In this document: positions 2,799-16,185 of the stretch, in pieces
How positions within the stretch are numbered: the stretch's first letter is position 1
How the letters are laid out: every line of letters begins with the position of its first letter
Source of the DNA: Polyangia bacterium
Lineage (GTDB): Bacteria > Myxococcota_A > Polyangia > Fen-1088
Direction of reading: 5' to 3'
Length of the DNA stretch: 52,808 nt
NCBI GenBank assembly: GCA_035544495.1
Contig: DATKEU010000418.1
Coordinates: 1-52,808 of the forward strand
Program-made: the position numbers and the translations under genes
The notes under the pieces: model-generated
Told to the model about the DNA's origin: nothing
The model's database searches: none
What the model saw: the letters and a program-made list of their open reading frames with translations, nothing else

Positions 2799-4694
2799 TT
2801 ACGGCACGGCGATCACGCTCGTCCACTGGGCGATGTGATTCGAGGTGCCGATGTCCTGGAACGGCAGGCAGAACGCGGCGGCGCTGGGATCCTCGCCGCG
2901 CGCGAGACGGCCGGTATCCACCGCCACCATCCAGATGAGCGTGCCGTTCGGCAACAGCTCGTGCGTCGACGCGGGCGGCGGCGACGGGCGCAAGCCATAC
3001 CGGCGCAGCGACGAGAACGTCAGCCACAAGATCTGGCTGTCGGCCGAGGTGTGAAACGAGAACGGGTTCCATTTCGGGTACGACGTGCCGAGATCCGGGA
3101 CGCCGCGGTCGGCAACGCCGGGCCGGTTGGCGGCGGCCAGCTCCACCGGCGTGGGAGCCGCCGCGCTGCCGAACGGGACCGCCCACAGCCGCGCGCTGGG
3201 ATCGGTGTCGGCGTTGCAGGTGCGGTCGTAGGTCTTTCCCGCCGGACAGGTCGACTCGTCGAAGACGACGAAGGCGCCGTCGGGCGCGATGGCCGGGTAA
3301 TACCGATTCTTCCCCGCCACCGATGGAACCAGCGCGCGCGGCGCCGACCAGACGCCGGCGCTGTCGCGTTCGACGTAGCTGATCGCGCCCTGTTCGGGCG
3401 CCTGATCGATGTGCGTGACGCCCACCTCCGTGAAGGCGATGCGGCTCCCGTCGAGGGACCAGTCCGGGTGGTCCGCCTGGATTCCGCCGAGCGGGATCGA
3501 ACCCGTGCGCGCGCCTGTGGCGCCGTCGAACAGCATCAGGTCCCTCTCGCCGCCATCGCCGAAGACGCCCACGAAGGCAGAGCCGTCCGGACCCCATGAC
3601 TCGAAGGTGCTGCGCTGGGCGAGCGGGAACGGCACGACCGGCGCGCGGCGCGCGACGTCGTACAACAGCGCGTCGCCGTCGATGCTGACGCTCGAGCCCG
3701 GGTTCATCTTGCTGGTGGTCAGCACCATCCTGGCGCCGTCGCGCGACAGCGCGTGACAGCCCACGCAGAACACCGTCGGATCGCCGCTGGCCTCCGGTCC
3801 CAGGAAGCGCTCTGCCTGGATGCGGGAGGCGTCGCCGAAATTCCAGCGCATGACCGCCGAGCCCTGCGACGTCGTCCAGTAGTAAAGCACGCCGCGCAGG
3901 TCGGCCGGCGCGAAGCGCAGCGACTGCATGGCGCTGGTGCCCACGGCCGTGCCCGCGTCGTCGGTCGCCCGGACCGCCAGCGCCAGCACCGAGCCGCCGC
4001 GGTTGGTCTCGGCCAGGCCCGTCCACACGTCACGCGTCGGCATGTACAAGCAGCCTGGATCGGCGTCGTTTCCGACCGGCGCGCAGCGGGTGTACGCGCG
4101 CACGTCGGTCAGATCGTTCGTGAACGCGACTTCGTAGAGCGTGTTGGCGGCGGCGCCGCTCCGGAAGTGCACCTCGATCTCGAACAGGTTCGGCGGCAGC
4201 AGCACGCCGTCGTTCGGGTAGACCAGCTCGGGGGCGCGCGCGGCGTCCGCCGGCCCCGTGAAGGCGCCGGCCGGCGCCGCCGGCAGCGGGGCCGCGCCCG
4301 CCGGCAGCGGGGCGTCCACGGCCAGGACGAAGCGCACGCGCAGGTGGGCCGTGGCCATCGCGCCTTGCCAGGTCACGCGAACCGTCGTCTCGCCCCCGAA
4401 GCGCGTGCCGGTGGTGGCGGCCCCGGTCGCGTCCACGCTCGCGAGCAGCGGGTTGTCGGAGCTCCAGGTCCCGGCGGTGGTCACGTCCGTCTCGTGGCCA
4501 CCGACGGTCCCGTAGGCGTGAAAGCGCGCCGTGGCGGGCGAGCCGTTCTGGATGCTCACCATCACCTCGGCCGGCTCCACCCGCAGGGCCGACGGCGCCG
4601 CGCCACCGACCACGAAGTCGGTCTTGCACGCGCCCAGACCGGCGGCGACGACCGCGCCCAGCGCGAGGGCCGCCGGATGCGGGCGCGCGCCCAT
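2799..4694 (-). CDS. Lipoprotein with an Ig-like (Big_2-type) N-domain, a single CxxCH motif and a PD40/TolB-like beta-propeller
   Basis: ORF 2799..4796 is trimmed to Met35 (4694). This gives the lipoprotein signal 'MGARPHPAALALGAVVAAGLGAC' and overlaps the upstream stop as TGATG (4692-4696). 'FCVGCHALSRDG' places CxxCH at 3753-3767. PD40-like repeats include 'WSLDGSRIAFTE' and 'YYPAIAPDGAFVVFDE'. Confidence 0.6.
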   Translation of the reverse strand: MGARPHPAALALGAVVAAGLGACKTDFVVGGAAPSALRVEPAEVMVSIQNGSPATARFHAYGTVGGHETDVTTAGTWSSDNPLLASVDATGAATTGTRFGGETTVRVTWQGAMATAHLRVRFVLAVDAPLPAGAAPLPAAPAGAFTGPADAARAPELVYPNDGVLLPPNLFEIEVHFRSGAAANTLYEVAFTNDLTDVRAYTRCAPVGNDADPGCLYMPTRDVWTGLAETNRGGSVLALAVRATDDAGTAVGTSAMQSLRFAPADLRGVLYYWTTSQGSAVMRWNFGDASRIQAERFLGPEASGDPTVFCVGCHALSRDGARMVLTTSKMNPGSSVSIDGDALLYDVARRAPVVPFPLAQRSTFESWGPDGSAFVGVFGDGGERDLMLFDGATGARTGSIPLGGIQADHPDWSLDGSRIAFTEVGVTHIDQAPEQGAISYVERDSAGVWSAPRALVPSVAGKNRYYPAIAPDGAFVVFDESTCPAGKTYDRTCNADTDPSARLWAVPFGSAAAPTPVELAAANRPGVADRGVPDLGTSYPKWNPFSFHTSADSQILWLTFSSLRRYGLRPSPPPASTHELLPNGTLIWMVAVDTGRLARGEDPSAAAFCLPFQDIGTSNHIAQWTSVIAVP

Positions 4695-5614
4695 CAGAAC
4701 CGCACCCCCGCCGTGGCGCCCAGCGAAAGCTCGACCCGCGGCAACGCGCGGACACCGACCGGCTCCGACGAGGTCACCAGGCGCTGGGCGGTCCACCCGA
4801 ACGCGGAGGCCCCCAGGCCCACCACCACCCGACCGCGCGTCCAGGTTCCGTCGAGTCCACCCGTCAGCCCCGGAGAAAGACCCGCCGTGGTCATGTCGCG
4901 CTCGAACCCGGTCCCCGACGCGAAGACGAGACCCAGGACCGGACCCGCGTGAAGGTCCAGCTGAAAGCGCCCCTCGGCGAAGCGCCGCGCGAGCTCCAGC
5001 GCCGCGCCGGCGCGCGCCCAGCGAGCGCGCCCGTCACCGAGATCGTTCTCCTGCGGCCACATGCCGAACAACAGCAGCCGCCCGCCGAGGCGCGGGCCCC
5101 ACAGACCAACGGTCAGGCGTGCCGACGGCGACAGCGCGCCGTCGGCCAGCGTGACCGCCGGGCCGACGGCGATCTCGATGGCAAGCGACGTCGGGGCGAC
5201 GACCGGAGGCGGAACCGCCACCACCACCGCGGCAGGCGGAGGGGCCGCGGCGGCGGGCGGCGGGCGCGCCGGCAGCGTGGGCGCCGGCACCCGCTGCGGT
5301 CGCTGCTGGGCCTCCCACGCCGCGATGACCACCGCCACCACGTTGGCCCGATCCGCGCACGACACGTCCAGCGTCAACACCCGCTCGCCGATCGGCGTCC
5401 CGTCGGCGGCAGTCAGGCGCACCCGCAGTCTGTTCCCTTCGGCGCTGATCGCCGCCCGCTCGCGCGCGGCGCTCTCGTCGGTCGGAGCCAGCAACGCGCC
5501 CAGGCGCGCCTCCACCTCCGTGGCCGACGGGCAAGCCGTTGCGCTCTCGACGGCGACGCGGCTGCCGCCCCCGCCCTGCAGGACGAAAAGGCCGAGGAGC
5601 GCGAGCTCAGTCAC
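4694..5614 (-). CDS. Putative outer-membrane beta-barrel protein with an N-terminal soluble domain and a Pro/Ala linker
   Basis: GTG 5614 overlaps the stop of the upstream gene (5607-5609) by 8 nt; ATG 5701 is an alternative start. A Pro/Ala-rich spacer 'PAPTLPARPPPAAAAPPPAAVVVAVPPPVV' is followed by an alternating-hydrophobic C-terminal half ending in an aromatic residue ('...SLGATAGVRF'). The signal peptide is weak, so the start and localisation are uncertain. Confidence 0.45.
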   Translation of the reverse strand: MTELALLGLFVLQGGGGSRVAVESATACPSATEVEARLGALLAPTDESAARERAAISAEGNRLRVRLTAADGTPIGERVLTLDVSCADRANVVAVVIAAWEAQQRPQRVPAPTLPARPPPAAAAPPPAAVVVAVPPPVVAPTSLAIEIAVGPAVTLADGALSPSARLTVGLWGPRLGGRLLLFGMWPQENDLGDGRARWARAGAALELARRFAEGRFQLDLHAGPVLGLVFASGTGFERDMTTAGLSPGLTGGLDGTWTRGRVVVGLGASAFGWTAQRLVTSSEPVGVRALPRVELSLGATAGVRF

Positions 5615-6578
5615 TGAGGGCGTGTCCCGCCGAGGCGGCGAACCGCCCGCGCGGGAACCGCCGCAGGTACTCTTCCAGATCTGCGCGGGCGCCCGTCTCA
5701 TCACCCAGGCGCGACCGGCACGAGCTGCGGCCGTAAAGCGCGCGCTCGACCACGATCCCCGTCGCCGACGGCGCGGCCAGTACCGCGTCGAAGTCCAGCG
5801 CGGCCCCCGCAGGATTGCCGCGCGCCGCGCGCAGCTCGCCACGCAGAAGCTGCATCTCCACCGTCCGCGGAAGGCGCGCGAGCGGCGCCGCTTCCAGCCG
5901 CGCCAGCGCCCGCCCCTTCCGCCCCAGCGCCAGCAGCGCGTCGATGCGGGCGGCGGTCGCCTCGGGCGCCAGCACGCCCTTCGGATAACGGTGGTCATAG
6001 CGATCCAGAACGCGAAGCGCGCGCCGGGGCGCCCGATCCTGTCGCAGCGCCTCGATCGCCCCGCCCAGCAAGCGCGACTCCGCCACCACCGGCTCGGGCA
6101 TCTCCGCCGGCGCCGGCTTCGGCGACAGGTGAACCCGCGCCCCGTGGACGGGCGCCGGCGCGGGCGAGGGCTCGGGAATCGGCTCTATCGTCACCGGCGA
6201 CGGCGACGGCGACGGCATGGCCGGCCCGCGGCGCTGGTCGCGCGCGGGAGCCCCGATCGGGTCGCGGAATCCCAGCCAGCGCTCGACCACCTGGCGCACG
6301 GGCACGAAACCCGTCACGCCGACCGCCGCCCCCACCGCGCTGCCCGCAAACAGGATCAAGGCGCCGACGGCTCCCACCGCCCACAGCCGCCACCCGCTGG
6401 CGCGCCCAACCACCACCGTGCGCCGCTCGATGCGGGCCGCGATCCGCGCCCGCGCCGACGGCGCCAGCCGTGGCGGCGCCGTGTTCAACAGACGAAGCAT
6501 GTGCGAGGCGGTGATCTCCGCCGGATCCTCGGTTGTCGCCCCCGCTGCCAACGGCCTTGGTGTCCCAAGCTCGATCAT
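5607..6578 (-). CDS. Anti-sigma-factor-like single-pass membrane protein with a TPR-like periplasmic domain
   Basis: ATG 6578 overlaps the sigma-factor stop as ATGA (6575-6578). It has about 60 cytoplasmic residues, one TM helix 'WRLWAVGAVGALILFAGSAVGAAVGV', a Pro-rich spacer 'PSPSPSPVTIEPIPEPSPAPAP' and a helical C-terminal domain. There is no HxxxCxxC zinc motif, so the call rests on position and topology only. Confidence 0.55.
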   Translation of the reverse strand: MIELGTPRPLAAGATTEDPAEITASHMLRLLNTAPPRLAPSARARIAARIERRTVVVGRASGWRLWAVGAVGALILFAGSAVGAAVGVTGFVPVRQVVERWLGFRDPIGAPARDQRRGPAMPSPSPSPVTIEPIPEPSPAPAPVHGARVHLSPKPAPAEMPEPVVAESRLLGGAIEALRQDRAPRRALRVLDRYDHRYPKGVLAPEATAARIDALLALGRKGRALARLEAAPLARLPRTVEMQLLRGELRAARGNPAGAALDFDAVLAAPSATGIVVERALYGRSSCRSRLGDETGARADLEEYLRRFPRGRFAASAGHALSD

Positions 6579-7156
6579 GACGCCTCCCCCCGCTCCTGCA
6601 TCGCGCGCAGCCGCTCGAGGAACCGCGCGCGGGCCCGGTGCAGTTGCACCCACACCGTGGCCAGCTTCGTCCCCGTCAGCGTCGCGATCTCCTCGCCCGA
6701 CAGACCCTCGATCTCGAACAGGACCAGCACCTCGCGTTGCTTGCGCTCCACTCCCTCCAGCGCCGCATAGACCGTCCGCGACGCCTGCTTGCGTTCCAGC
6801 TCCTCGACCGGCGTCGGCCGCGGCGTCGGGATGTCGCCAGCGAAGTCGCCGGTCAGACCCCGCAGCCAGCGCGTGATGCGCTGCTTGCGGCGCTGCCGGT
6901 GTACGACGCGCTCCGTGATTCGGTACAGCCACGTCGAGACCTTGGCCTGGGCGCGCCACTCCGGCAGCCGGCGCTGCACCACCATGAAGACGTCGTGAAC
7001 CACGTCCTCGGCGTCGATTGTGGGACCACCGAGGCGCATCACCCAGCGCTCCACCTGGACCGCGTAGGTCCGGTACAGCGAATCGATGTCCACCGCGGCC
7101 GGCGATGCATCGAGGAGTGGGTCGCGCTCGCTCTTCATGGCAACGGCAATCGACAT
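6575..7156 (-). CDS. ECF (group 4) RNA polymerase sigma-70 factor
   Basis: ORF 6575..7606 is trimmed to ATG 7156 (193 aa), with GAGG 5 nt upstream. Region 2 reads 'DAEDVVHDVFMVVQRRLPEW...STWLYRITERV'. Region 4 reads 'REVLVLFEIEGLSGEEIATLTGTKLATVWVQLHRARARF'. Confidence 0.85.
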   Translation of the reverse strand: MSIAVAMKSERDPLLDASPAAVDIDSLYRTYAVQVERWVMRLGGPTIDAEDVVHDVFMVVQRRLPEWRAQAKVSTWLYRITERVVHRQRRKQRITRWLRGLTGDFAGDIPTPRPTPVEELERKQASRTVYAALEGVERKQREVLVLFEIEGLSGEEIATLTGTKLATVWVQLHRARARFLERLRAMQERGEAS

Positions 7157-7301
7157 GTTAGCCTCAACCCAGTGCCGGGCGGGGCCGATTTCCTTACGTC
7201 GTGGGACAGGGAAGATTTGATTCTGACCCGCCGCGGCGTCTTCGCCAGTCCAGCGTGCGGAAAATGAAAGGTCCGGGTCTTCTCCGGAGACGAGGCCACG
7301 G

Positions 7302-9161
7302 ATGATCCGCACCGGTTTCCCGGACCGCTGCGTCCGATGTGTGCTGACCTGCGCCGCCGGGCTGGCCGCGCTGGCCGCGCTGGTGTGGCCGGCGCCGGCC
7401 GCCGCGCAGGGCTTCACCATCAGCGCGCAGTCGGGCCTGGACACCGTGCGCGCCGTGCGCGCCGCCGACTGGTGGCTGAGCGGCGTCGGGCTCATCGATC
7501 TCGACGGTGACGGCGACCTGGACGTCTTCCTCAGCTCGCACGGCTCGTACGGCGCTCTGGCGGCCGTCAACGACGGCAAGGGACACTTCACGGTCGCCGC
7601 CGGCACCTACCCGGACACCGAGCTGCTCTTGCCCTGCGATCTGGACGAGGACGGCAAGATCGATTTCGCCGCGACCTACTCCGACGGCGGCGCGAAGTGG
7701 TGGCTGAACCGAAGCACGCCGGGCGGCATGCTGTCGTTCCTGGGCACCATGGTCACGCGCGACGGAGGCCAGGCGCGCCAGCAGGCTCTGGTCGACATCG
7801 ACGGCGACGGCAAGCTGGACTGGTTGCGCGGCGCGGGCGCCGGCGTGCTGTTCGATCTCGGCGACGGCAAGGGCGGCTTCGCGGCCGCCAGCCGCACGCT
7901 GGCCAACCCGGGCGGCGAGGAGATCGCCGTCATCCCGGTGGACATCGACGGCGACGGCGACGAGGACCTGCTGGTCAACTTCGGTCGCTACGACACCTAC
8001 GGCCCCAACGGAGCCTCGCGCCTGTACCGCAACGACGGCGGCGGCACGTTCACCAACGTGACCACCCAGGCGGGGCTTTACGAGATCGGCCTGGCGGTGA
8101 AGGGCGTGGGCGACTTCGACCAGGACGGCGACACGGACATCATCGCCCTCGAGAAGCTCGCCTTCCCGCACACCATCTTCCTGAACGACGGCAAGGGCAA
8201 CTTCACCCGCAAGGCCGGCGCCGTCGACGGGCCGACCGGCACGGCCGAGTACGGATCGTGGGGCCTGGCCGCGATGACCGATCTCGACAACGATGGCCTG
8301 CCCGACATCGTCGTCGACGGGCGCAACTACCTGCACGTGCTGCGCGGGACGGGCGGCGGGTCGTTCTCGTACGTCAACAAGACCTGGGGCGGCATCGTCG
8401 ACATCGCGGAGGCCTCCGTGGACAACGGCTTCTCCTTCGGCGACATCGACGGGGACGGCGACCTGGATCTGATCGGGTACAAGACCATCGACCCGCGGCG
8501 CGACCTGAACGTCTACGTCAACAATCTGCCCGCCCAGAACTGGATCAACGTGCGGCCCGTCGGCGTCAGCGGCAACAAGGCCGCCGTGGGCGCTCAGATT
8601 CGCGTCTACGCCGCCGGCGGCGATCAGCTGCTGTGGTTCGAGGAGGTGGTCTTGTACAACAAGCAGGTCCAGCAGGCCTATTACGCGCGCGGCGAGACCG
8701 AGCGCCATTACGGCCTGGGCGCGCGCGCCTCGGTGGACGTGACAGTGACCTTCTCCCCGTCGCACAAGCAGGTCCGACAAAACGGCGTCGCGGCGGGGAC
8801 CACCGTGCGCATCAGTGAGGACGGCGCTGGCGTCGTCGTGCCGCCGCCGACCCCGGTGGCGGACGCGGGCACGCCGCCAACTCCCGGCGACGGGAGCGGC
8901 GGTGCCGCCGGGACAGGCGGCGGTGGCTCCGGCGGGTCAGGACCGGGCACCGGCGACATGCCCGCGACCGGCGCGCCCGGAACAAGCTCCGGAACCGGTG
9001 GATCGGCGGCCCGCCCACCGCAAGCGACCGGGACCGTGACCGGCGGATGCGCTTTGGGCGCCAGCGCCCACCGACCCGGCGCGATCGCTCCGTTGGTGGG
9101 CGCGCTGGCGTTGCTAGGCCTTGCGGCCCCGCGGCCCGCCCGGCGCCGGAGGCGGCGATGA
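7302..9161 (+). CDS. FG-GAP/VCBS-repeat plus ASPIC/UnbV-domain (CRTAC1-like) surface protein with a MYXO-CTERM-like tail
   Basis: Signal 'CAAGLAALAALVWPAPAAAQG'. Repeated 'DLDGDGDLDV', 'DIDGDGKLDW', 'DIDGDGDEDL', 'DFDQDGDTDI', 'DLDNDGLPDI' and 'DIDGDGDLDL' Ca-binding FG-GAP/VCBS loops. The ASPIC block reads 'NWINVRPVGVSGNKAAVGAQIRVY...ERHYGLG'. A Gly/Ser/Thr/Pro linker leads to 'GGCALGASA...LVGALALLGLAAPRPARRRRRR' (Cys codon 9048-9050). Confidence 0.75.
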   Translation: MIRTGFPDRCVRCVLTCAAGLAALAALVWPAPAAAQGFTISAQSGLDTVRAVRAADWWLSGVGLIDLDGDGDLDVFLSSHGSYGALAAVNDGKGHFTVAAGTYPDTELLLPCDLDEDGKIDFAATYSDGGAKWWLNRSTPGGMLSFLGTMVTRDGGQARQQALVDIDGDGKLDWLRGAGAGVLFDLGDGKGGFAAASRTLANPGGEEIAVIPVDIDGDGDEDLLVNFGRYDTYGPNGASRLYRNDGGGTFTNVTTQAGLYEIGLAVKGVGDFDQDGDTDIIALEKLAFPHTIFLNDGKGNFTRKAGAVDGPTGTAEYGSWGLAAMTDLDNDGLPDIVVDGRNYLHVLRGTGGGSFSYVNKTWGGIVDIAEASVDNGFSFGDIDGDGDLDLIGYKTIDPRRDLNVYVNNLPAQNWINVRPVGVSGNKAAVGAQIRVYAAGGDQLLWFEEVVLYNKQVQQAYYARGETERHYGLGARASVDVTVTFSPSHKQVRQNGVAAGTTVRISEDGAGVVVPPPTPVADAGTPPTPGDGSGGAAGTGGGGSGGSGPGTGDMPATGAPGTSSGTGGSAARPPQATGTVTGGCALGASAHRPGAIAPLVGALALLGLAAPRPARRRRRR

Positions 9162-11269
9162 GAGCCTTCGCGAGAGTGGCGCTGGTCCTGCCGCTGGCGA
9201 CGGTCGCGTGCGTCTCCAGCGAGATTGGCAATCCGCCCGGCGGTGGCGGCGCCGGCGCGTCCGCGACCGGCGCGGGCGGAACGACGATGGGTGGCACCGG
9301 CACCAGCGGCAGCGGCGGCGCCTCGGGCGCGGCGGGCGCCCCCGCCGGCGGGGGCATGCCGGAGAACACCAGCTTCGCTTCCGGCGTGCGCGTTCACCTG
9401 CAGCGCACGTACGGCGCGCCGAAGCTCGTCTCCTTCGGTCTGCCCGTTCCGCCGGGCGCCGTGAAGAACGCCTCCGACGTCCGCTTCAGCGTGAGCGGCG
9501 CCGCGACGACCGCCAGCGTGAAGGCGCTGCTCGCCGAGCACGACGCGAACGGCGCGCCGATCGGCGTGCGCGCGCTTCTGGTCCAGCTCCCGGCCACAAT
9601 CCTCGCCGGCGACAGCGCCGACGTGGACGTCACCTGGAGCGGCGGCGCCGGTGCCGCCGCCAGCGGCGCCATGACGCTGTTCGCGTCCGCCGACGTCAGC
9701 GCCGACGCGCCCGAAGTGGTCCCCACCGCGACCCGATCGATCACGTCAATGGGCGGCACGAACCTGCTGGTCGCCAGCACCCCCGTGATGAGGACCCTCT
9801 TCACCGGCCACGAACCGCGCGTGCTGGCGACGTTCCCCGACGGCTATCTCGCCGCCACCGGCCTGCTCGGGCACCAGGTCACCGACGGCGCCGCCGCGGC
9901 CCCCGACAGCGCCGGCCTGTCTTTTCTCTCCGACCAGGTCAAGCGGTTCGGCGCCTCCGCGATGTACGCCGAGGACTATCCCGTCAATCCCGACAGCATC
10001 GTCGATCCGGTGGTGAACTATGAAGGCTGGCTCTACGATCGCTGCGCCACCTTCCTGACGTTCTACACGCACACCGGCGACGCGCGCTTCCTTCGCCATG
10101 CGTACCGGAGCTGCTCGTACTACGCGAGCAAGATCGTGCTTGCGGGCGCGAACGCCGGCACCTTCAGCGGCAAGCCCGACCCCGACAGCAAGTACTCGCA
10201 CCTGCGCGGGCTCTACGCCTACTACGCCCTCACCGGCGACGAATCGGCGCTGGCCGCCGGCCAGGCCATCGCCGCGCTCTGGCTCCAGGACGACACGTTC
10301 GTCGGCCCTTATCGGATGGGTCACCTGCGCGGCGTCGACAAGCTCTGGACGGAGCGCCTCCTCGGGACCAGCCTCGAGGGCCTGTACTACGGACACCGCC
10401 TGACCGGCGACGTCCAGTACCTGGCGGCCTTCAAGCAGATGCTGGACACGGCCACCCGCCACATCACGGGTGACGCCGCCGCGCTCGCGTCCATCAACCC
10501 GGGTGTGGGCCCGTTCCCGCCGCAGAACTGCTTCATCCACTCCGCCCTCCAGCACGACGAGGGCGCCGCCACCGATCCCTGGTGCTCGATCTGGATGAGC
10601 GAGCTGACCATCGATTCGCTGCTGCAGTACCAGGCGCAGACGAAGGATCCGCGCGTCGACGAGATCTTCGTGCGGCTCGTCCGCTTCCTGCGCGACGTCG
10701 GCTCGCAGTACGTCGTCGCCGACGTCGAGGGCGACTCGTTCCTCAATCCCAAGTCCTGCTACGACCCGACCGCCGGCAACGTCCGCCGCCTCTCGCCGCT
10801 TTACGGCTCGGGCCTGGACGCGGCCCAGATGCGCCACAACTTCGGCCTCTCCGACGACGTCGAGCACTGCACGGACGCGACCGCGCTCACCGCCGCCGGC
10901 ATCCGCGCGCTGGTGCGCCAGGGAAAGTTCGCCGACAACCCGATCGGCCCCTTCGCCAGCGAGGGTGAATCGTTCGTGGCCCTGCACCACGAGTTCGCCG
11001 CCTGCGCCAAGCAGACCTTCGCCGATTGGACCCGGCCGCATCGCGATCCCGCCACCTGGACCAGCGCCGATCTGGCCCGCGGCCTCGCCGACCCGGCCAA
11101 GTTCGTCTCCGACAACTTGATCGGCTACCCGAAGTACGTGTCGACCCCGCAACGAAAGCTCTCCTGGTGGTTCAACATGTCGATGCTCCAGTTCGGCCTG
11201 CTGGCGGACGCGGGCGTGAAGATCCCGGCGCTGCAGCCCGGCCGCATCCAGCCCGCGGGCTGCAAGTGA
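9158..11269 (+). CDS. Lipoprotein of unknown function (703 aa)
   Basis: ATG 9158 overlaps the upstream stop as ATGA (9158-9161). Lipoprotein signal 'MRAFARVALVLPLATVAC' is followed by a Gly/Ser/Thr tether. Third-position GC is high throughout. I cannot name a family; the helix-rich centre ('YYASKIVLAG...LRGLYAYYALTGDESALAAGQAIAALW') might be an alpha/alpha-toroid glycan-active fold, but that is speculation. Confidence 0.6.
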   Translation: MRAFARVALVLPLATVACVSSEIGNPPGGGGAGASATGAGGTTMGGTGTSGSGGASGAAGAPAGGGMPENTSFASGVRVHLQRTYGAPKLVSFGLPVPPGAVKNASDVRFSVSGAATTASVKALLAEHDANGAPIGVRALLVQLPATILAGDSADVDVTWSGGAGAAASGAMTLFASADVSADAPEVVPTATRSITSMGGTNLLVASTPVMRTLFTGHEPRVLATFPDGYLAATGLLGHQVTDGAAAAPDSAGLSFLSDQVKRFGASAMYAEDYPVNPDSIVDPVVNYEGWLYDRCATFLTFYTHTGDARFLRHAYRSCSYYASKIVLAGANAGTFSGKPDPDSKYSHLRGLYAYYALTGDESALAAGQAIAALWLQDDTFVGPYRMGHLRGVDKLWTERLLGTSLEGLYYGHRLTGDVQYLAAFKQMLDTATRHITGDAAALASINPGVGPFPPQNCFIHSALQHDEGAATDPWCSIWMSELTIDSLLQYQAQTKDPRVDEIFVRLVRFLRDVGSQYVVADVEGDSFLNPKSCYDPTAGNVRRLSPLYGSGLDAAQMRHNFGLSDDVEHCTDATALTAAGIRALVRQGKFADNPIGPFASEGESFVALHHEFAACAKQTFADWTRPHRDPATWTSADLARGLADPAKFVSDNLIGYPKYVSTPQRKLSWWFNMSMLQFGLLADAGVKIPALQPGRIQPAGCK

Positions 11270-12837
11270 GCAAGCCCCGCCTCGCCGCCGCCACCGCCTT
11301 CCTCGCGCTCGCCATCTCGGCGGGACGTGCCGCGGCCACCGCCTACGTGGTCGCGCCCACGGGGGACGACAGCGCCGCCGGGAGCTCCGCCGCGCCCTGG
11401 AGGACGCTGCAGAAAGCAGCCGGCAAGGTGATGGCCGGCGACACGGTCACCGTGCGCGACGGGACCTACGCCGGATTCGCGTGCAACGGGCGCAGCGGAA
11501 CGGCCACGGCCCGCATCGTCTTCACGGCCGAGAACAAGGGCGGCCCGAAGATCACGTCGCCGGGAGTGGGTGCCGACGACCAGGACTTCATCCAGCTCGC
11601 ATCGTGCAGCTACGTGACCATCGACGGCTTCGAGGTCTCGGGCGCGCCGCGCTCGGGCATCGCGATCCTGGGCAATGCCAACGACGGCTCCGACGCGCGC
11701 GGCGTGGTGATCCAGAACAACCACAGCCACCACAACGGAGGGCCGGTCGCCCATGGCCGGCACGACGGCATCTTCAGCGGCTTCGCGCTCGACCTCACCA
11801 TCCAGAACAACGAGGTCCACGACAACAGCGAGCACGGCATCTACGTCTCGAACGCCGCCGACAACCCGATCATCCGCCGCAACCACGCGCACGACGTCGG
11901 CGTGAACTGCGTCCAGATCAACGCCGACCTCTCGACCGGCGGCGACGGGCTGATCTCCGGCTGGCTCATCGAGGACAACGTCGTCCACGGCTGCGGCTCC
12001 GCCGGTTTCAACCTGGACGGCGCGATCCGCGGCGTCATGCAGAACAACCTGGCGTACGACTGCGCGAAGGGCGGGGTCACGCTGTTCCAGGGCGACGGCG
12101 CCCAGGCCTCGCACGACAACCTCATCGTCAACAACACCATCTACAATCCCGGCGGATCGCGGGCGGCGTTGCAGGTCGCCAACGGCGCCAACAACAACGT
12201 CGTCTTCAACAACATTCTTTACGCGCAGGCGATCGGGCTCGAGATCCAGACGGTCACCGGGCTGGTGCACGACTACAACTTCGTCTCCAGCTACGCGGGC
12301 GGCGTCGCGGCGGCGCACGAGACGACGGCGGCTCCGGCGCTGCTGTTCATGAACGTCCCCGCCCGCAACCTGAGCCTCGCCCCGGCTTCCCCGGCGGTGG
12401 GCAGCGGCGTGGCCACGCTGGGGGGCAAGGCAGCGCCCGCCGTGGACATCGAAGGCAACGAGCGCCCAGCCGCCGGCGCCCCCGATCGCGGCTGCTTCGA
12501 GGGGAGCACGAACGGCCTCGGTCTCACGATCGGAGAAGGCCCGAGCAGCGGCGGAACCGACGCCGGGACCGGAACGGGTCGCGCGACGGGGGGCGGCGCC
12601 GTGACGAGCTCGGACGCGGCGACGATGACGAGCACACCACCGGGAACGAGCAGCTCACCCGGATCAGGTGGCGGCGCGACGGGAACGGGCGGTGCGGCGG
12701 CTGGCGCTGCCGCCGGGACCTCGGAGCTCACCGGCTGCGCCTGCCGCGCCTCCAAACCCGGAGCTCCGGGATCCTGGGCCGCGCTGGGCGTCATGGTGCT
12801 CGCCTTCGCGCGGCGCCGCCGGCGCGGCCAGCCGTAG
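11266..12837 (+). CDS. Right-handed parallel beta-helix (pectate-lyase fold) surface protein with a MYXO-CTERM-like tail
   Basis: GTG 11266 overlaps the upstream stop as GTGA. Signal 'VSKPRLAAATAFLALAISAGRAAA'. The N-cap reads 'YVVAPTGDDSAAGSSAAPWRTLQKAAGKVMAGDTVTVRDGTYAGF'. Stacked rungs include 'VVIQNNHSHHNGG', 'LTIQNNEVHDNSEHGIYV', 'IIRRNHAHDVG', 'WLIEDNVVHGCG', 'VMQNNLAYDC', 'LIVNNTIYNPG' and 'VVFNNILYAQ'. The tail reads 'LTGCACRAS...ALGVMVLAFARRRRRGQP' (Cys codon 12736-12738). Confidence 0.7.
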   Translation: MSKPRLAAATAFLALAISAGRAAATAYVVAPTGDDSAAGSSAAPWRTLQKAAGKVMAGDTVTVRDGTYAGFACNGRSGTATARIVFTAENKGGPKITSPGVGADDQDFIQLASCSYVTIDGFEVSGAPRSGIAILGNANDGSDARGVVIQNNHSHHNGGPVAHGRHDGIFSGFALDLTIQNNEVHDNSEHGIYVSNAADNPIIRRNHAHDVGVNCVQINADLSTGGDGLISGWLIEDNVVHGCGSAGFNLDGAIRGVMQNNLAYDCAKGGVTLFQGDGAQASHDNLIVNNTIYNPGGSRAALQVANGANNNVVFNNILYAQAIGLEIQTVTGLVHDYNFVSSYAGGVAAAHETTAAPALLFMNVPARNLSLAPASPAVGSGVATLGGKAAPAVDIEGNERPAAGAPDRGCFEGSTNGLGLTIGEGPSSGGTDAGTGTGRATGGGAVTSSDAATMTSTPPGTSSSPGSGGGATGTGGAAAGAAAGTSELTGCACRASKPGAPGSWAALGVMVLAFARRRRRGQP

Positions 12838-13024
12838 GCCGACCGAACCCCGCCCAGCGCTCACCACCCGCCTGACCGCGCGGTGGTCGTGCAAGTGCGC
12901 GAACGACCGAGGGAAGTCGTCATTGGCCCGACCCTGGCGGCGTTTTTAAATCGGCGGTCGGACCAATTGCCTTTTGATCACAACAGCTTGACCTATGTTA
13001 CCGGTATCGAGGTACATTAGGAAC

Positions 13025-14728
13025 ATGCGAGCAACGGCTCTTGGTCTGATGTTGATCGCAGCGGGTTGCTCCGGCGCGATCGGAGACTTTCCGAGCGGAC
13101 CCGGCTCTGAGCCTGGTGGCTCGGGGCCTGGCACCACGGGCGGCGGCGGTGGTCCGGTTGCGCCCGTCGGGCCCGGCGCCGAGATGCCCAGCCCGCGCCT
13201 GCTGCGACAGCTGACGCTCAGCGAGTACCGCAACACCGTCGGCGATCTGCTTCAGATCAGCAACCCCGACACGACCAATATTCCGGCCGACGTGCCCGTG
13301 CGCGGCTTCACCACCAATACCGCCAGCGCGTTCATCGATCAGAGCAACGTCGACCGCTACCAGTCGGTCGGCGGCGCCCTGGCCGACCGCGCGATCACGG
13401 AGTCCTTCGCGAAGCTGGTTCCCTGCCAGACGACGGACAGCGCCTGCGCCGGCAAGTTCGTCGAGACGTTCGGCCTGCGCGCCTTCCGCCGCCCGGTGAC
13501 CCCCGACGAGAAGACGCGCTACCTGGCGCTGTTCGATCCCACGCTGACCGGCGGCGACTTTCCGACCGGCGTCGGCCTGGTCATCAAGACCATGCTGATC
13601 TCGCCCTTTTTCCTGATGCGCAGCGAGCTCGGCGATCAGATGAACAACGGCCAGATCGTGTTGACGCCGTACGAAATCGCCAGCGCGCTGTCGTACGGTT
13701 ACACGGGCTCGATGCCCGACGACGCGCTCTTCGCCGCCGCGCAGAGCGGGGCGCTGGCGAGCAAGAGTGAGATCGAGACGCAGGCCCGCCGGTTGGTGGC
13801 GTCGGACCGCGGGCGGGCGCGCATCGCCGCCTTCGCCGGCGAGTGGATGGAGGCCTCGCGCGCGTTCGTCGCGACCAAGGATCCGATGACCTTCCCGGCG
13901 TTGAAGGACGCCGCGACCAGCGCCGCCATCGTCGACGCGATGAAGGCAGAGTCCGATGCCTTCTTCACCAGCGTCGCCTACGACGGGACGAAGAAGTGGG
14001 ACGAGCTGTTCTCGGCCAATTACACCTTCGCCAACGATCGCCTGGCGGCGTACTACGGGCTGCCGATGCCGGGGTCGCCGGACAAGGCCGTGAAGGTGAC
14101 GCTGCCGGCGGGATCGCCCCGCGGCGGGCTGCTGACGCTGGGGATGTTCCTGTTCGGCCACGCTCGCGCCGACCAGTCGTCGCCCACGCAGCGCGGGCAC
14201 GTCATCCGCGCCAACATCTTCTGCACCGACGTGGCGCCACCGCCGCCCGGCGTGGACGCCACCGTGAAGCCGGGCACGCCGGGCAACACCGGCCGCGAGC
14301 AGATCGAGGCGCTGACCGGATCGGGCAGCTGCAACGCCTGCCATAGCCTGATGAACCCCATCGGATATGGGCTGGAAGGCTTCGACGGCGCCGCGCAGGT
14401 GCGCACGATGGATCACGGGGAGATGGTCGACACCTCGGGCGTCATCAACGGCGTGTTCGCCCAGCCGCTCGCCTTCAACGGTCCTCGAGCGCTGTCGACG
14501 ATCGTCGCTGGCAACAAGGACGCGCAGGCCTGCCTGGCCAAGAACTATTACCGGTACGTGCGCGGGTTCGACCCGATACAGACCGGCGTCAGCGCGGACG
14601 GCAACGCCGTCGAGCTTTTGGGGCGGGACTTCGCCAGCGGCAACCTGGACATGACGGAGATGTTCGTGCGCGTGGCGCTGCAGAACTCGTTCACCGTTCG
14701 TCGGTCCGTGGAGGCTTTGAACCGATGA
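13025..14728 (+). CDS. DUF1592/DUF1587/DUF1588/DUF1585-family lipoprotein (full-length paralogue of 2..1396)
   Basis: ORF 12995 is trimmed to ATG 13025, giving the lipoprotein signal 'MRATALGLMLIAAGC' plus a Gly-rich tether. Family blocks include 'LRQLTLSEYRNTVGDLL', 'FGLRAFRRPVTPDE' and 'LISPFFLMRSE'. The C-terminus reads 'CNACHSLMNPIGYGLEGFDG', with CxxCH at 14330-14344. Confidence 0.7.
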   Translation: MRATALGLMLIAAGCSGAIGDFPSGPGSEPGGSGPGTTGGGGGPVAPVGPGAEMPSPRLLRQLTLSEYRNTVGDLLQISNPDTTNIPADVPVRGFTTNTASAFIDQSNVDRYQSVGGALADRAITESFAKLVPCQTTDSACAGKFVETFGLRAFRRPVTPDEKTRYLALFDPTLTGGDFPTGVGLVIKTMLISPFFLMRSELGDQMNNGQIVLTPYEIASALSYGYTGSMPDDALFAAAQSGALASKSEIETQARRLVASDRGRARIAAFAGEWMEASRAFVATKDPMTFPALKDAATSAAIVDAMKAESDAFFTSVAYDGTKKWDELFSANYTFANDRLAAYYGLPMPGSPDKAVKVTLPAGSPRGGLLTLGMFLFGHARADQSSPTQRGHVIRANIFCTDVAPPPPGVDATVKPGTPGNTGREQIEALTGSGSCNACHSLMNPIGYGLEGFDGAAQVRTMDHGEMVDTSGVINGVFAQPLAFNGPRALSTIVAGNKDAQACLAKNYYRYVRGFDPIQTGVSADGNAVELLGRDFASGNLDMTEMFVRVALQNSFTVRRSVEALNR

Positions 14729-16185
14729 CAAAGATCATCAGACGGCGGGGCATCCTGAAAGGCCTGGCGGCCAGCGGCCTCGCGGCGCCGCTGGGCCAGC
14801 TGTTCCGAATGCACACCGGACGCGCGGCGAGCGCGGCGCCGGTGCCGAAGGTGGTGTTCTTCTACACCCCGTGCGGCGTCGAGCTGCCGCTGTGGCACCC
14901 GACGCAGACCGGAACGACGTTCACGTTGCCGCGCCTGTCGGCGCCGCTGCAGCCGCTGGCATCGGAGTGCATCTTCATGGACGGCATCTCGATGGTGCCG
15001 CTGACCGATCACCAGGGCGGGTCGCAGCAGATGCTGGCCGGCGACGACAGGGACGTCAAGACGATCGACCTGCAGCTGGGAGATTTCCTGCAGCAGATGA
15101 CGCCGATCCGTTTTCTGGAGCTGGGCGTTCAATCGCGCATCAGCAAGGGCGGAACGCCCACGGTCCCGCACCCGCACTTCACGCGCGAGTCGCTGGCTCA
15201 CGAGATCTTCGCCGAGGACAACCCGCTGGCCGCCTTCGGTTCGACGTTCATGAGCGGCGCGACCAGCAGCACGCCGAGCACGACGCCCGACGCGATGGCG
15301 GCCGTGATGCGGCTGGCGAAGCAGCGCAAGAGCATGCTGGACATCGCCACCGCGGATCTCGGGTCGCTGTCCAGCAAGCTGCCGAACTCGGAGAAGAACA
15401 AGATCGCGTCGTACACCGACGCGATCCGGTCGCTGGAGATGCGGCTCACCGATCCGGCCAACCTGCCCAACACGGCGATGTGCACGGATTTCTCCAGCTT
15501 CAACCCGACCATGTTCACCGTCCCGCCGGTGGGCGATCCCAACCAGGCGAGCTATGAACAGACCGCCAGCCAGGGGACGGTCGCGGACCTGCAGATGGAG
15601 GTCGCGCGACTGGCGCTGGCCTGCGGCCGCACGCGCGTGGTGACCTTGCTGTACGGGCACACCAACGCGCACAACCCGATCCAGGGGCTGGGGCCGTTCG
15701 GCGTGCACGACGCTTCTCACTACAATGCCCCGCCCGGACAGCTGACGGGCAACGCCACGCCGGAGCAGGTCAACGCCAAGCTGACCGCCTGGCGCAACTA
15801 CCGCGAGTGGTACGCGCAGAAGCTGGCGCAGTTCGTGACGGCGATGAAGAACACACCCGATCCGATGGGCGGCTCGCTGCTGGACACGACGATCATCCTG
15901 CACTGCTCGGAGCTGGGCGACGGCGGCCCGCACAAGACCGATCGCGTGCCGTTCGTGTTCATCGGCGGCCGCGCCTATGGGTTCAAGCTGGGCCAGGCGC
16001 TGAACTTCAACGGCGCCGTGCCGGCGTACACCGCGGGCGCGCACAGCGGGCAGCGCTATATGTCGCACTCGCCGCTGCTGACCATCGTCGCGCAGAAGAT
16101 GGGCCTGCCGCTGACGGGCAAGTTCTTCGGGTTCTCCGGCCCGCAGGCACTGGACCCGGCTGGCCTGAACATCCTCTCCAGCTAG
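14725..16185 (+). CDS. DUF1552-family protein with twin-arginine signal (paralogue of 1398..2777)
   Basis: The ATG overlaps the upstream stop as ATGA (14725-14728). Tat-type signal 'IIRRRGILKGLAASGLAAPL'. It is collinear with 1398..2777. Confidence 0.75.
   Translation: MTKIIRRRGILKGLAASGLAAPLGQLFRMHTGRAASAAPVPKVVFFYTPCGVELPLWHPTQTGTTFTLPRLSAPLQPLASECIFMDGISMVPLTDHQGGSQQMLAGDDRDVKTIDLQLGDFLQQMTPIRFLELGVQSRISKGGTPTVPHPHFTRESLAHEIFAEDNPLAAFGSTFMSGATSSTPSTTPDAMAAVMRLAKQRKSMLDIATADLGSLSSKLPNSEKNKIASYTDAIRSLEMRLTDPANLPNTAMCTDFSSFNPTMFTVPPVGDPNQASYEQTASQGTVADLQMEVARLALACGRTRVVTLLYGHTNAHNPIQGLGPFGVHDASHYNAPPGQLTGNATPEQVNAKLTAWRNYREWYAQKLAQFVTAMKNTPDPMGGSLLDTTIILHCSELGDGGPHKTDRVPFVFIGGRAYGFKLGQALNFNGAVPAYTAGAHSGQRYMSHSPLLTIVAQKMGLPLTGKFFGFSGPQALDPAGLNILSS

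Follow-up and report, generated by a model that had tools for sequence, protein, structure and literature searches.

Sequence comparison identifies a large family of gene cassettes in Polyangia (Myxococcota) that has not been previously characterised. Each cassette joins a sigma factor of the extracytoplasmic function (ECF) type, a putative anti-sigma factor and a small predicted outer-membrane barrel, here called G3. We analysed the cassette on contig DATKEU010000418.1 of a Polyangia bacterium. The whole stretch of DNA analysed, 52.8 kb with about 70% G+C, is referred to below as the window. Here, four minus-strand genes encode the sigma factor, the anti-sigma-like protein, G3 and a lipoprotein, G4. 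By a modest measure we favour a reading in which a bridge of two chains, G3 and the anti-sigma-like protein, spans the envelope and gates the sigma factor, and in which lipoproteins sharing an N-terminal tag (the cargo) are the target. The four genes are as follows.

6575-7156, minus strand: ECF sigma factor, 193 aa (Pfam Sigma70_r2 and r4_2, TIGR02937)
5607-6578, minus strand: anti-sigma-like protein, 323 aa (overlap with the sigma stop, homology to the gene after sigma in related loci, weak tetratricopeptide repeat (TPR) matches)
4694-5614, minus strand: G3, predicted outer-membrane protein, 306 aa (AlphaFold2 (AF2) model and Foldseek barrel matches, hidden Markov model (HMM) family)
2799-4694, minus strand: G4, putative cargo lipoprotein, 631 aa (AF2 model, TolB match, Myxococcota homologues)

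Neighbouring genes overlap at each of the three junctions. The sigma stop and the anti-sigma start share ATGA (6575-6578), GTGACTGA at 5607-5614 holds the anti-sigma stop and the G3 start, and TGATG at 4692-4696 joins the G3 stop to the G4 start (the ATG of G4 being 4694-4692). An earlier reading of the letters without database searches (the sequence-only reading) had listed an ATGA, an 8-nt and a TGATG overlap, and all three are present in the sequence at these positions. Since the orthologues of these genes overlap in a similar manner in L003, L088 and L170, with the exception of a 5-nt gap between the barrel and lipoprotein genes of L088, the four genes form a conserved and probably translationally coupled operon.

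Sigma factor, anti-sigma and barrel form a conserved core

An exhaustive HMM search assigned 2067 cluster representatives to the G3 family, 441 of them at E <= 1e-30. This overturned the picture of a rare family that a word-seeded search with 37 matches had given. The best matches to the window proteins came from metagenome-assembled genomes of Polyangia. We surveyed a distant branch of the family, comprising 80 metagenomic loci with barrels 30-37% identical to the window G3. Its gene order is G3, sigma, anti-sigma and a fourth gene, the cargo, versus sigma, anti-sigma, G3 and cargo in the window; the latter order was also found in L003, L088, L169, L170 and the P0142 locus. Sigma directly follows G3 in 53 of the 55 distant-branch loci with enough flank. 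When G3 was clustered at 90% identity, sigma adjoined it in 42 of 42 clusters and the anti-sigma in 30 of 30 (clusters with enough flank). Since this linkage holds in all testable clusters, and since the anti-sigmas of both gene orders are homologous, the conserved core consists of sigma, anti-sigma and barrel. Co-occurrence of all four window genes proved partial: the first three are linked in all testable clusters, whereas the lipoprotein, across the 80 genome loci judged, is linked to them in its nearest orthologues only.

G3 and the anti-sigma were never found fused, but were separate genes in every locus examined. P0157 (462 aa), which we considered as a G3-G4 fusion, was rejected because it reads as a frameshifted assembly. 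Neighbouring genes in other loci were called with a gene caller based on G+C content at third codon positions, which is poor on overlapping genes, and key calls were checked with HMMs.

Gene 1 is, by its sequence, a standard ECF sigma factor. Its product matched Pfam Sigma70_r2 (5e-13) and r4_2 (7e-14) and scored 80 bits on TIGR02937 against a cutoff of 42.9. With sigma-2 and sigma-4 domains only and a length of 193 aa (about 190 expected), it has the properties of ECF (group 4) sigma factors. SigE and CnrH are the closest solved structures, and all NCBIfam equivalog models remained below cutoff.

The anti-sigma-like protein comprises a cytoplasmic N-region of about 60 aa, one transmembrane helix, a Pro-rich linker and a TPR-like C-domain of about 150 residues. 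In every related locus, the gene that follows sigma encodes a homologue of it (phmmer 1e-24 to 1e-87). Three independent, weak TPR matches were obtained for the C-domain (TPR_16, E 1.4e-4; YbgF, 3.6e-4; PDB 4r7s, 1.4e-4), and apart from the one weak TPR match, the search of the anti-sigma profile against the PDB gave low-complexity histone noise. Neither zf-HC2 nor FecR was matched in Pfam or NCBIfam, and the cytoplasmic N-region has no Cys and lacks the zinc-binding anti-sigma (ZAS) motif HxxxCxxC. The sequence-only reading had described this protein in the same terms, lacking zinc-binding and FecR-like features and possessing a Pro-rich spacer and a TPR-like periplasmic domain; the linker is indeed present, and the TPR assignment holds at the level of the weak matches.

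G3 is predicted to be a small outer-membrane barrel

G3 starts with a hydrophobic stretch, followed by an alpha/beta N-domain in which two Cys (C28 and C86) are invariant, a Pro-rich linker and a small C-terminal beta-barrel. In the AF2 monomer model (predicted local distance difference test (pLDDT) score of 85) the barrel spans residues 145-306, and Foldseek matched it to OmpA-TM, OmpX, Ail, NspA and OmpW (probability 1.0, E 1e-8 to 1e-4). The window copy ends in ...GVRF; a terminal Phe or other aromatic residue is not conserved across the wider family. That is, the modelled G3 fits the small OmpA/OmpX-type outer-membrane barrels in its antiparallel fold and, in the window copy, in its C-terminal aromatic residue, in agreement with the barrel ending in Phe that had been read from gene 3 before. 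The family has no Pfam or NCBIfam model, and none of 40 members significantly matched any Pfam or outer-membrane protein (OMP) barrel model, including OMP_b-brl_2.

Unrelated cargo proteins share an N-terminal tag

The fourth slot of the distant branch is filled by unrelated proteins, namely DUF1592/1588/1585 (PSCyt3 type, the commonest), PD40, FG-GAP, Kelch, NHL/SBBP, DUF4215 and GH8 proteins; in the window clade it is filled by G4. Common to these cargos is a tag after the lipidated Cys, C-x(3-5)-[L/F/S][L/I/V][I/V]G-[Q/D/E/N] (in short C-x(3-5)-ΦΦΦG), followed by a Gly-rich linker. We found it in 29 of the 31 distinct cargos, from seven unrelated families. Of the 119 further lipoproteins predicted in these loci, one carries it. 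The window G4 carries it as C23-KTDFVVG. Module-linked G4 orthologues all read C[K/R]x[D/E][F/L][V/I]VG, while the tag is absent from unlinked paralogues. We propose that through this tag the cargo is connected with the conserved module, either in a physical or in a functional sense.

The loci L087 and L098, whose G3 proteins are 57% identical, encode cargos with similar signal peptide, tag and linker (CDSRVLIVGNNPDATG versus CDNHLLVGQNADAAG) and unrelated globular domains (PD40 and DUF1592, respectively). This contrast suggests cargo swapping at the Gly-rich linker.

Two short elements of G4 are located as follows.

4605-4628, minus strand: lipobox Cys23 and tag KTDFVVG, G4 residues 23-30 (tag statistics)
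3753-3767, minus strand: CVGCH motif, G4 residues 310-314 (invariance in homologues)

G4 has the lipobox LGAC with Cys23; its folded part consists of a Big_2-like Ig domain, a beta-sandwich and a propeller resembling that of TolB. The AF2 monomer model of G4 (pLDDT 87, predicted TM-score 0.86) had TolB as top Foldseek match (E 1e-13, TM-score about 0.5 on the target), and the tag region is disordered in it (pLDDT 36, residues 1-32). Residues C310, C313 and H314 of the CVGCH motif are invariant in 35 G4 homologues. The motif has the CxxCH form to which haem is covalently bound in c-type cytochromes. Lipobox, CVGCH and propeller bear out the earlier description of gene 4 as a CxxCH beta-propeller lipoprotein. 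The likeness to TolB is confined to the propeller. TolB combines a periplasmic TolA-binding N-domain with a 6-bladed propeller and is encoded in a tol-pal operon. G4, in contrast, is lipidated, has the Ig domain, the beta-sandwich and the invariant CxxCH in addition, occurs in multiple copies and lies outside any tol-pal operon.

The G4 family is multi-copy in Myxococcota. It counts at least 769 proteins, the genome collection contains 318 relatives, and some homologues have PD40 repeats. In the 80 of these 318 relatives in which linkage was judged, G4 lay beside sigma, anti-sigma and G3 only in the nearest orthologues (74-78% identity). We therefore rejected G4 as a conserved partner of the module. 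G4 looks like a sigma target and cargo that is joined to the module by the shared N-terminal tag.

In the module-unlinked G4 paralogues P0024-P0102 (from genome and metagenome loci), the lipobox Cys is followed by a different conserved N-terminus, CTF[N/S]P[E/K]RPG, with a Gly/Thr/Pro-rich linker, which hints at a possible second lipoprotein tag. Some genomes harbour two G4 paralogues about 19 kb apart. In Archangium violaceum (L002 3725-10352; also L045 and L067), a different ECF sigma factor is followed by a ZAS anti-sigma (HPCEQC). Further downstream are a Peptidase_C14 protein that ends in ...GYRF and has a C-terminus barrel-like by eye, a CarboxypepD_reg lipoprotein and a homologue of G4 whose C-terminal extension is rich in Cys. 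This arrangement is analogous to that of the window, with no detectable homology between the caspase-barrel protein and G3.

A conserved motif predicts the regulon

About 48 distinct loci share a bipartite motif directly before sigma, TGTAAGGTT or its variant TGAAACCTT, followed after a fixed gap by (G)ACAC. The register is constant (22 nt from TAAG to CAC), and the general form is TGTAAGG/TGAAAC-N17-CAC. In its geometry the motif resembles ECF promoters, for example that of SigW (TGAAAC-N16-CGTA). Shortly before the cargo gene, across the stop codon of the anti-sigma gene, lies a second copy, which is visible in 32 of 34 distinct loci; its position weight matrix score was at least 10 in 20 of the 34, versus 0.019 expected per region. 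Within each locus, the subtypes of the sigma-proximal and the cargo-proximal copy agree. The family motif is a candidate cognate promoter of the sigma factor, and the copy before the cargo gene would make the cargo a direct sigma target. Before G3 the motif was not enriched (2 of 46 at the 95th percentile of shuffles), so that distant-branch G3 would be expressed independently of sigma.

At the G3/sigma and anti-sigma/cargo junctions of L085-L168, the upstream stop codon often lies inside the -35-like element (TAA in GTAAGG, TGA in TGAAAC), so the end of one gene and the promoter of the next overlap. Many G3 genes of the same loci have TAnnnT boxes (TATACT, TAGAGT, TAAGGT) 6-15 nt before the start, as seen by eye in the 0-40 nt upstream. 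These boxes suggest leaderless or near-leaderless transcripts from housekeeping-type promoters.

Within the 52.8-kb window, the pattern GWAAGG-N17-SAC has exactly two matches (0.67 expected). Both are located in the 145-nt divergent region and face opposite ways, one towards sigma and one towards a divergent operon.

7172-7197, minus strand: candidate sigma-operon promoter GTAAGG-N17-CAC, 15 nt before the ATG (conserved motif)
7266-7291, plus strand: candidate divergent-operon promoter GAAAGG-N17-GAC, 10 nt before the ATG at 7302 (conserved motif)
7302-9161, plus strand: FG-GAP/UnbV_ASPIC secreted protein, first gene of the divergent operon (Pfam FG-GAP_3, 3e-32)
9158-11269, plus strand: lipoprotein without recognised family, about 700 aa (77% identity to the divergent 723-aa gene of L088; no Pfam match)
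11266-12837, plus strand: right-handed beta-helix protein with MYXO-CTERM anchor (Pfam Beta_helix, 3e-19; TIGR03901)

The sigma-side site is conserved in L003, L088 and L170. The copy before the divergent operon (TGAAAGGTC...GAC, register unchanged) is kept in L170/L171, where the neighbour is an FG-GAP gene, and in L088, where the 723-aa neighbour is the relative of the window gene 9158-11269 listed above. It is absent in L003, where the neighbour is an alpha-amylase. The P0128 and P0142 loci contain the same divergent pair of an FG-GAP gene and a gene of about 720 aa. From the motif, two units are predicted in the window: sigma/anti-sigma/G3/G4, transcribed from 7172-7197, and the FG-GAP operon, transcribed from 7266-7291. 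The sequence-only reading had guessed that the operon at 7302-12837 belongs to the regulon. Since the second of the two window copies precedes this operon and is conserved in L170/L171 and L088, the guess is supported in silico, and we regard the divergent operon as a plausible regulon member.

Two narrower patterns, GGGTC...GTAAGG and the strict GTAAGGA...GGSACTG, matched the sigma site only and had suggested a divergent operon without promoter; the relaxed pattern and the conservation of the site overturned this. A sigma-70 consensus scan of the region gave no match. An inverted repeat, TCCGGAGAAGACCCGGA, occupies 7272-7288 in the spacer of the predicted divergent promoter and was flagged as terminator-like by the scanner; it could be an operator or a chance occurrence. 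The genes of the divergent operon overlap as well (ATGA at 9158-9161, GTGA at 11266-11269). The window further contains two DUF1592-type/DUF1552 gene pairs, 26-2777 and 12995-16185, the second being 33% and 26% identical to the first. Such a pair is convergent with G4 also in L003 and L170. No promoter motif was found before the window pairs where upstream DNA is present.

Proposed mechanism and alternatives

In the two-chain bridge that we favour, the N-domain of G3 would dock on the TPR domain of the anti-sigma, both proteins spanning the periplasm on their Pro-rich linkers. The sigma factor would be set free when something changes at the outer membrane or when the cargo tag is engaged, and would then transcribe the cargo genes as well as its own operon. 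For the tag, the bridge leaves two roles: feedback on the TPR domain, or docking of the cargo on G3. We infer both the contacts between G3 and the anti-sigma and the signal. A more specific form of this proposal, which we put forward tentatively and consider rather doubtful as a whole, is that the relay, in which the barrel in the outer membrane has a docking domain and the TPR anti-sigma sits in the inner membrane, reads the short N-terminal tag of lipoproteins, so that any cargo domain placed behind the tag would be controlled by, and reported to, its own ECF switch.

Several observations speak against the bridge. The anti-sigma role is assigned from position, topology and conservation, no known anti-sigma domain having been detected. 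Profile searches with the G3 N-domain against the PDB and Pfam yielded no credible match. The N-terminus of G3 is hydrophobic but has no basic residues, so that export is deduced from the modelled barrel fold. The predicted promoters are conserved motifs rather than mapped transcription starts, and the sigma-proximal site of the window scores only 6.4 bits on a matrix derived for the most part from distant-branch sites; what led to its recognition was conservation specific to the clade. Finally, L127 and L128 have G3 directly followed by GH8, without sigma. Unlike in these two loci, a near-identical G3 in L130 precedes sigma, anti-sigma and GH8; L127 and L128 seem to represent either an assembly variant or a natural deletion of both regulator genes.

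What G3 does with the cargo could also be read differently. It may be no sensor at all but a dedicated outer-membrane handler of tagged cargo (an anchor, a surface-display factor or a threading partner), with the TPR domain reading free tag as feedback on traffic. The tag is cargo-specific (29/31 versus 1/119) and tracks module linkage even within one protein family, and the region that carries it is disordered, as a linear docking motif would be. There are precedents as well: TPR domains bind extended peptides, Neisseria Slam combines a TPR domain with a barrel in lipoprotein export, and RcsF of E. coli threads through OMPs. However, a barrel of OmpA/OmpX size leaves little lumen for transport, distant-branch G3 has no sigma promoter and would not be co-induced with its supposed client, and surface exposure of the cargo would have to be assumed. 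We judge this possibility to be on the unlikely side, though one to be reckoned with. It appears improbable that the sigma and anti-sigma are an ordinary envelope-stress pair and that barrel and lipoprotein are mere regulon members without a signalling role. Many ECF regulons do include envelope proteins, and the four overlapping window genes stand behind a single predicted promoter. But G3 remains with sigma and anti-sigma whatever the cargo, and its distant-branch gene is located upstream of the sigma promoter and is no part of the unit predicted to depend on sigma. The shared cargo tag would also be left unexplained.

The sequence-only reading had proposed non-TonB signalling in which the barrel and the CxxCH propeller lipoprotein together are the outer-membrane sensor. 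In the window clade G3 and G4 are adjacent and overlapping, and G4 bears the module-specific tag. Of this proposal, a non-TonB module with the barrel as constant companion of sigma (42/42) and anti-sigma (30/30) is supported. The part given to the lipoprotein is not: most of the G4 family is unlinked to any sigma, with the module present only beside the nearest orthologues in the 80 genome loci, seven unrelated families fill the slot, and a separate copy of the sigma promoter precedes the slot gene of the distant branch, which is what one expects of a target. G4 is therefore not a conserved sensor partner, and we hold a two-protein sensor to be very improbable.

Relation to known systems

The nearest precedent is found in the Dma anti-sigmas, which have one chain; the bridge would be their split equivalent. 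Dma1 contains an anti-sigma domain, a transmembrane helix, a disordered linker and an 8-stranded outer-membrane barrel in one chain; Dma proteins are characterised by an OMP_b-brl_2 barrel and an ECF21 partner, and their discoverers found none outside Bacteroidota (PMC10927553). The module resembles Dma in its putative cytoplasmic sigma-binding segment, inner-membrane helix, long flexible periplasmic linker and small outer-membrane barrel, and both are TonB-independent. However, Dma is one polypeptide, whereas here barrel and anti-sigma are the products of two genes with a stop/start overlap, and each chain has an extra globular periplasmic domain (the Cys-pair N-domain of G3, the TPR-like domain of the anti-sigma). 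G3 does not match OMP_b-brl_2 (0/40 members), the hosts are Myxococcota, and nothing like the cargo tag or the promoter motif has been described for Dma. The module thus lies outside the definition of Dma but may function similarly.

FecA/FecR/FecI-type TonB signalling likewise has three parts, with the target genes adjacent: a protein of the outer membrane, an anti-sigma that crosses the inner membrane once, and an ECF sigma factor. In contrast, genes 2 and 3 of the module encode no transducer, Plug, STN or FecR domain (Pfam, NCBIfam), and the barrel is OmpA/OmpX-sized. In the Pseudomonas SigX-CfrX-CmpX-OprF locus (ECF102), an ECF sigma factor is conserved beside a putative anti-sigma and an OmpA-family outer-membrane protein (PMC7826278). 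An ECF sigma factor, a putative anti-sigma and an outer-membrane protein are encoded side by side in both cases. However, OprF is an abundant porin with a peptidoglycan-binding domain, whereas the N-domain of G3 differs and has no Pfam match, and the module lacks a mechanosensitive channel.

Significance

ECF sigma factors constitute the third main mode of bacterial signalling. To our knowledge, TonB-dependent transducers were the only known source of outer-membrane input to these factors until 2024, when Dma of Bacteroidota was added. The module adds a third outer-membrane/ECF arrangement. It is an abundant one, with 2067 cluster representatives, for which no family model exists. Its predicted cognate promoter would make regulons readable from sequence alone, and the tag common to unrelated lipoproteins provides a concrete experimental handle. 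The widespread DUF1592/PSCyt3 proteins, and several propeller proteins lacking known function, gain a first regulatory context. The sets of sigma factor, anti-sigma and promoter may serve as orthogonal parts for synthetic circuits. If the tag-reading relay were true, dual-membrane anti-sigma signalling would extend beyond Bacteroidota, and the tag would be a new recognition signal of lipoproteins.

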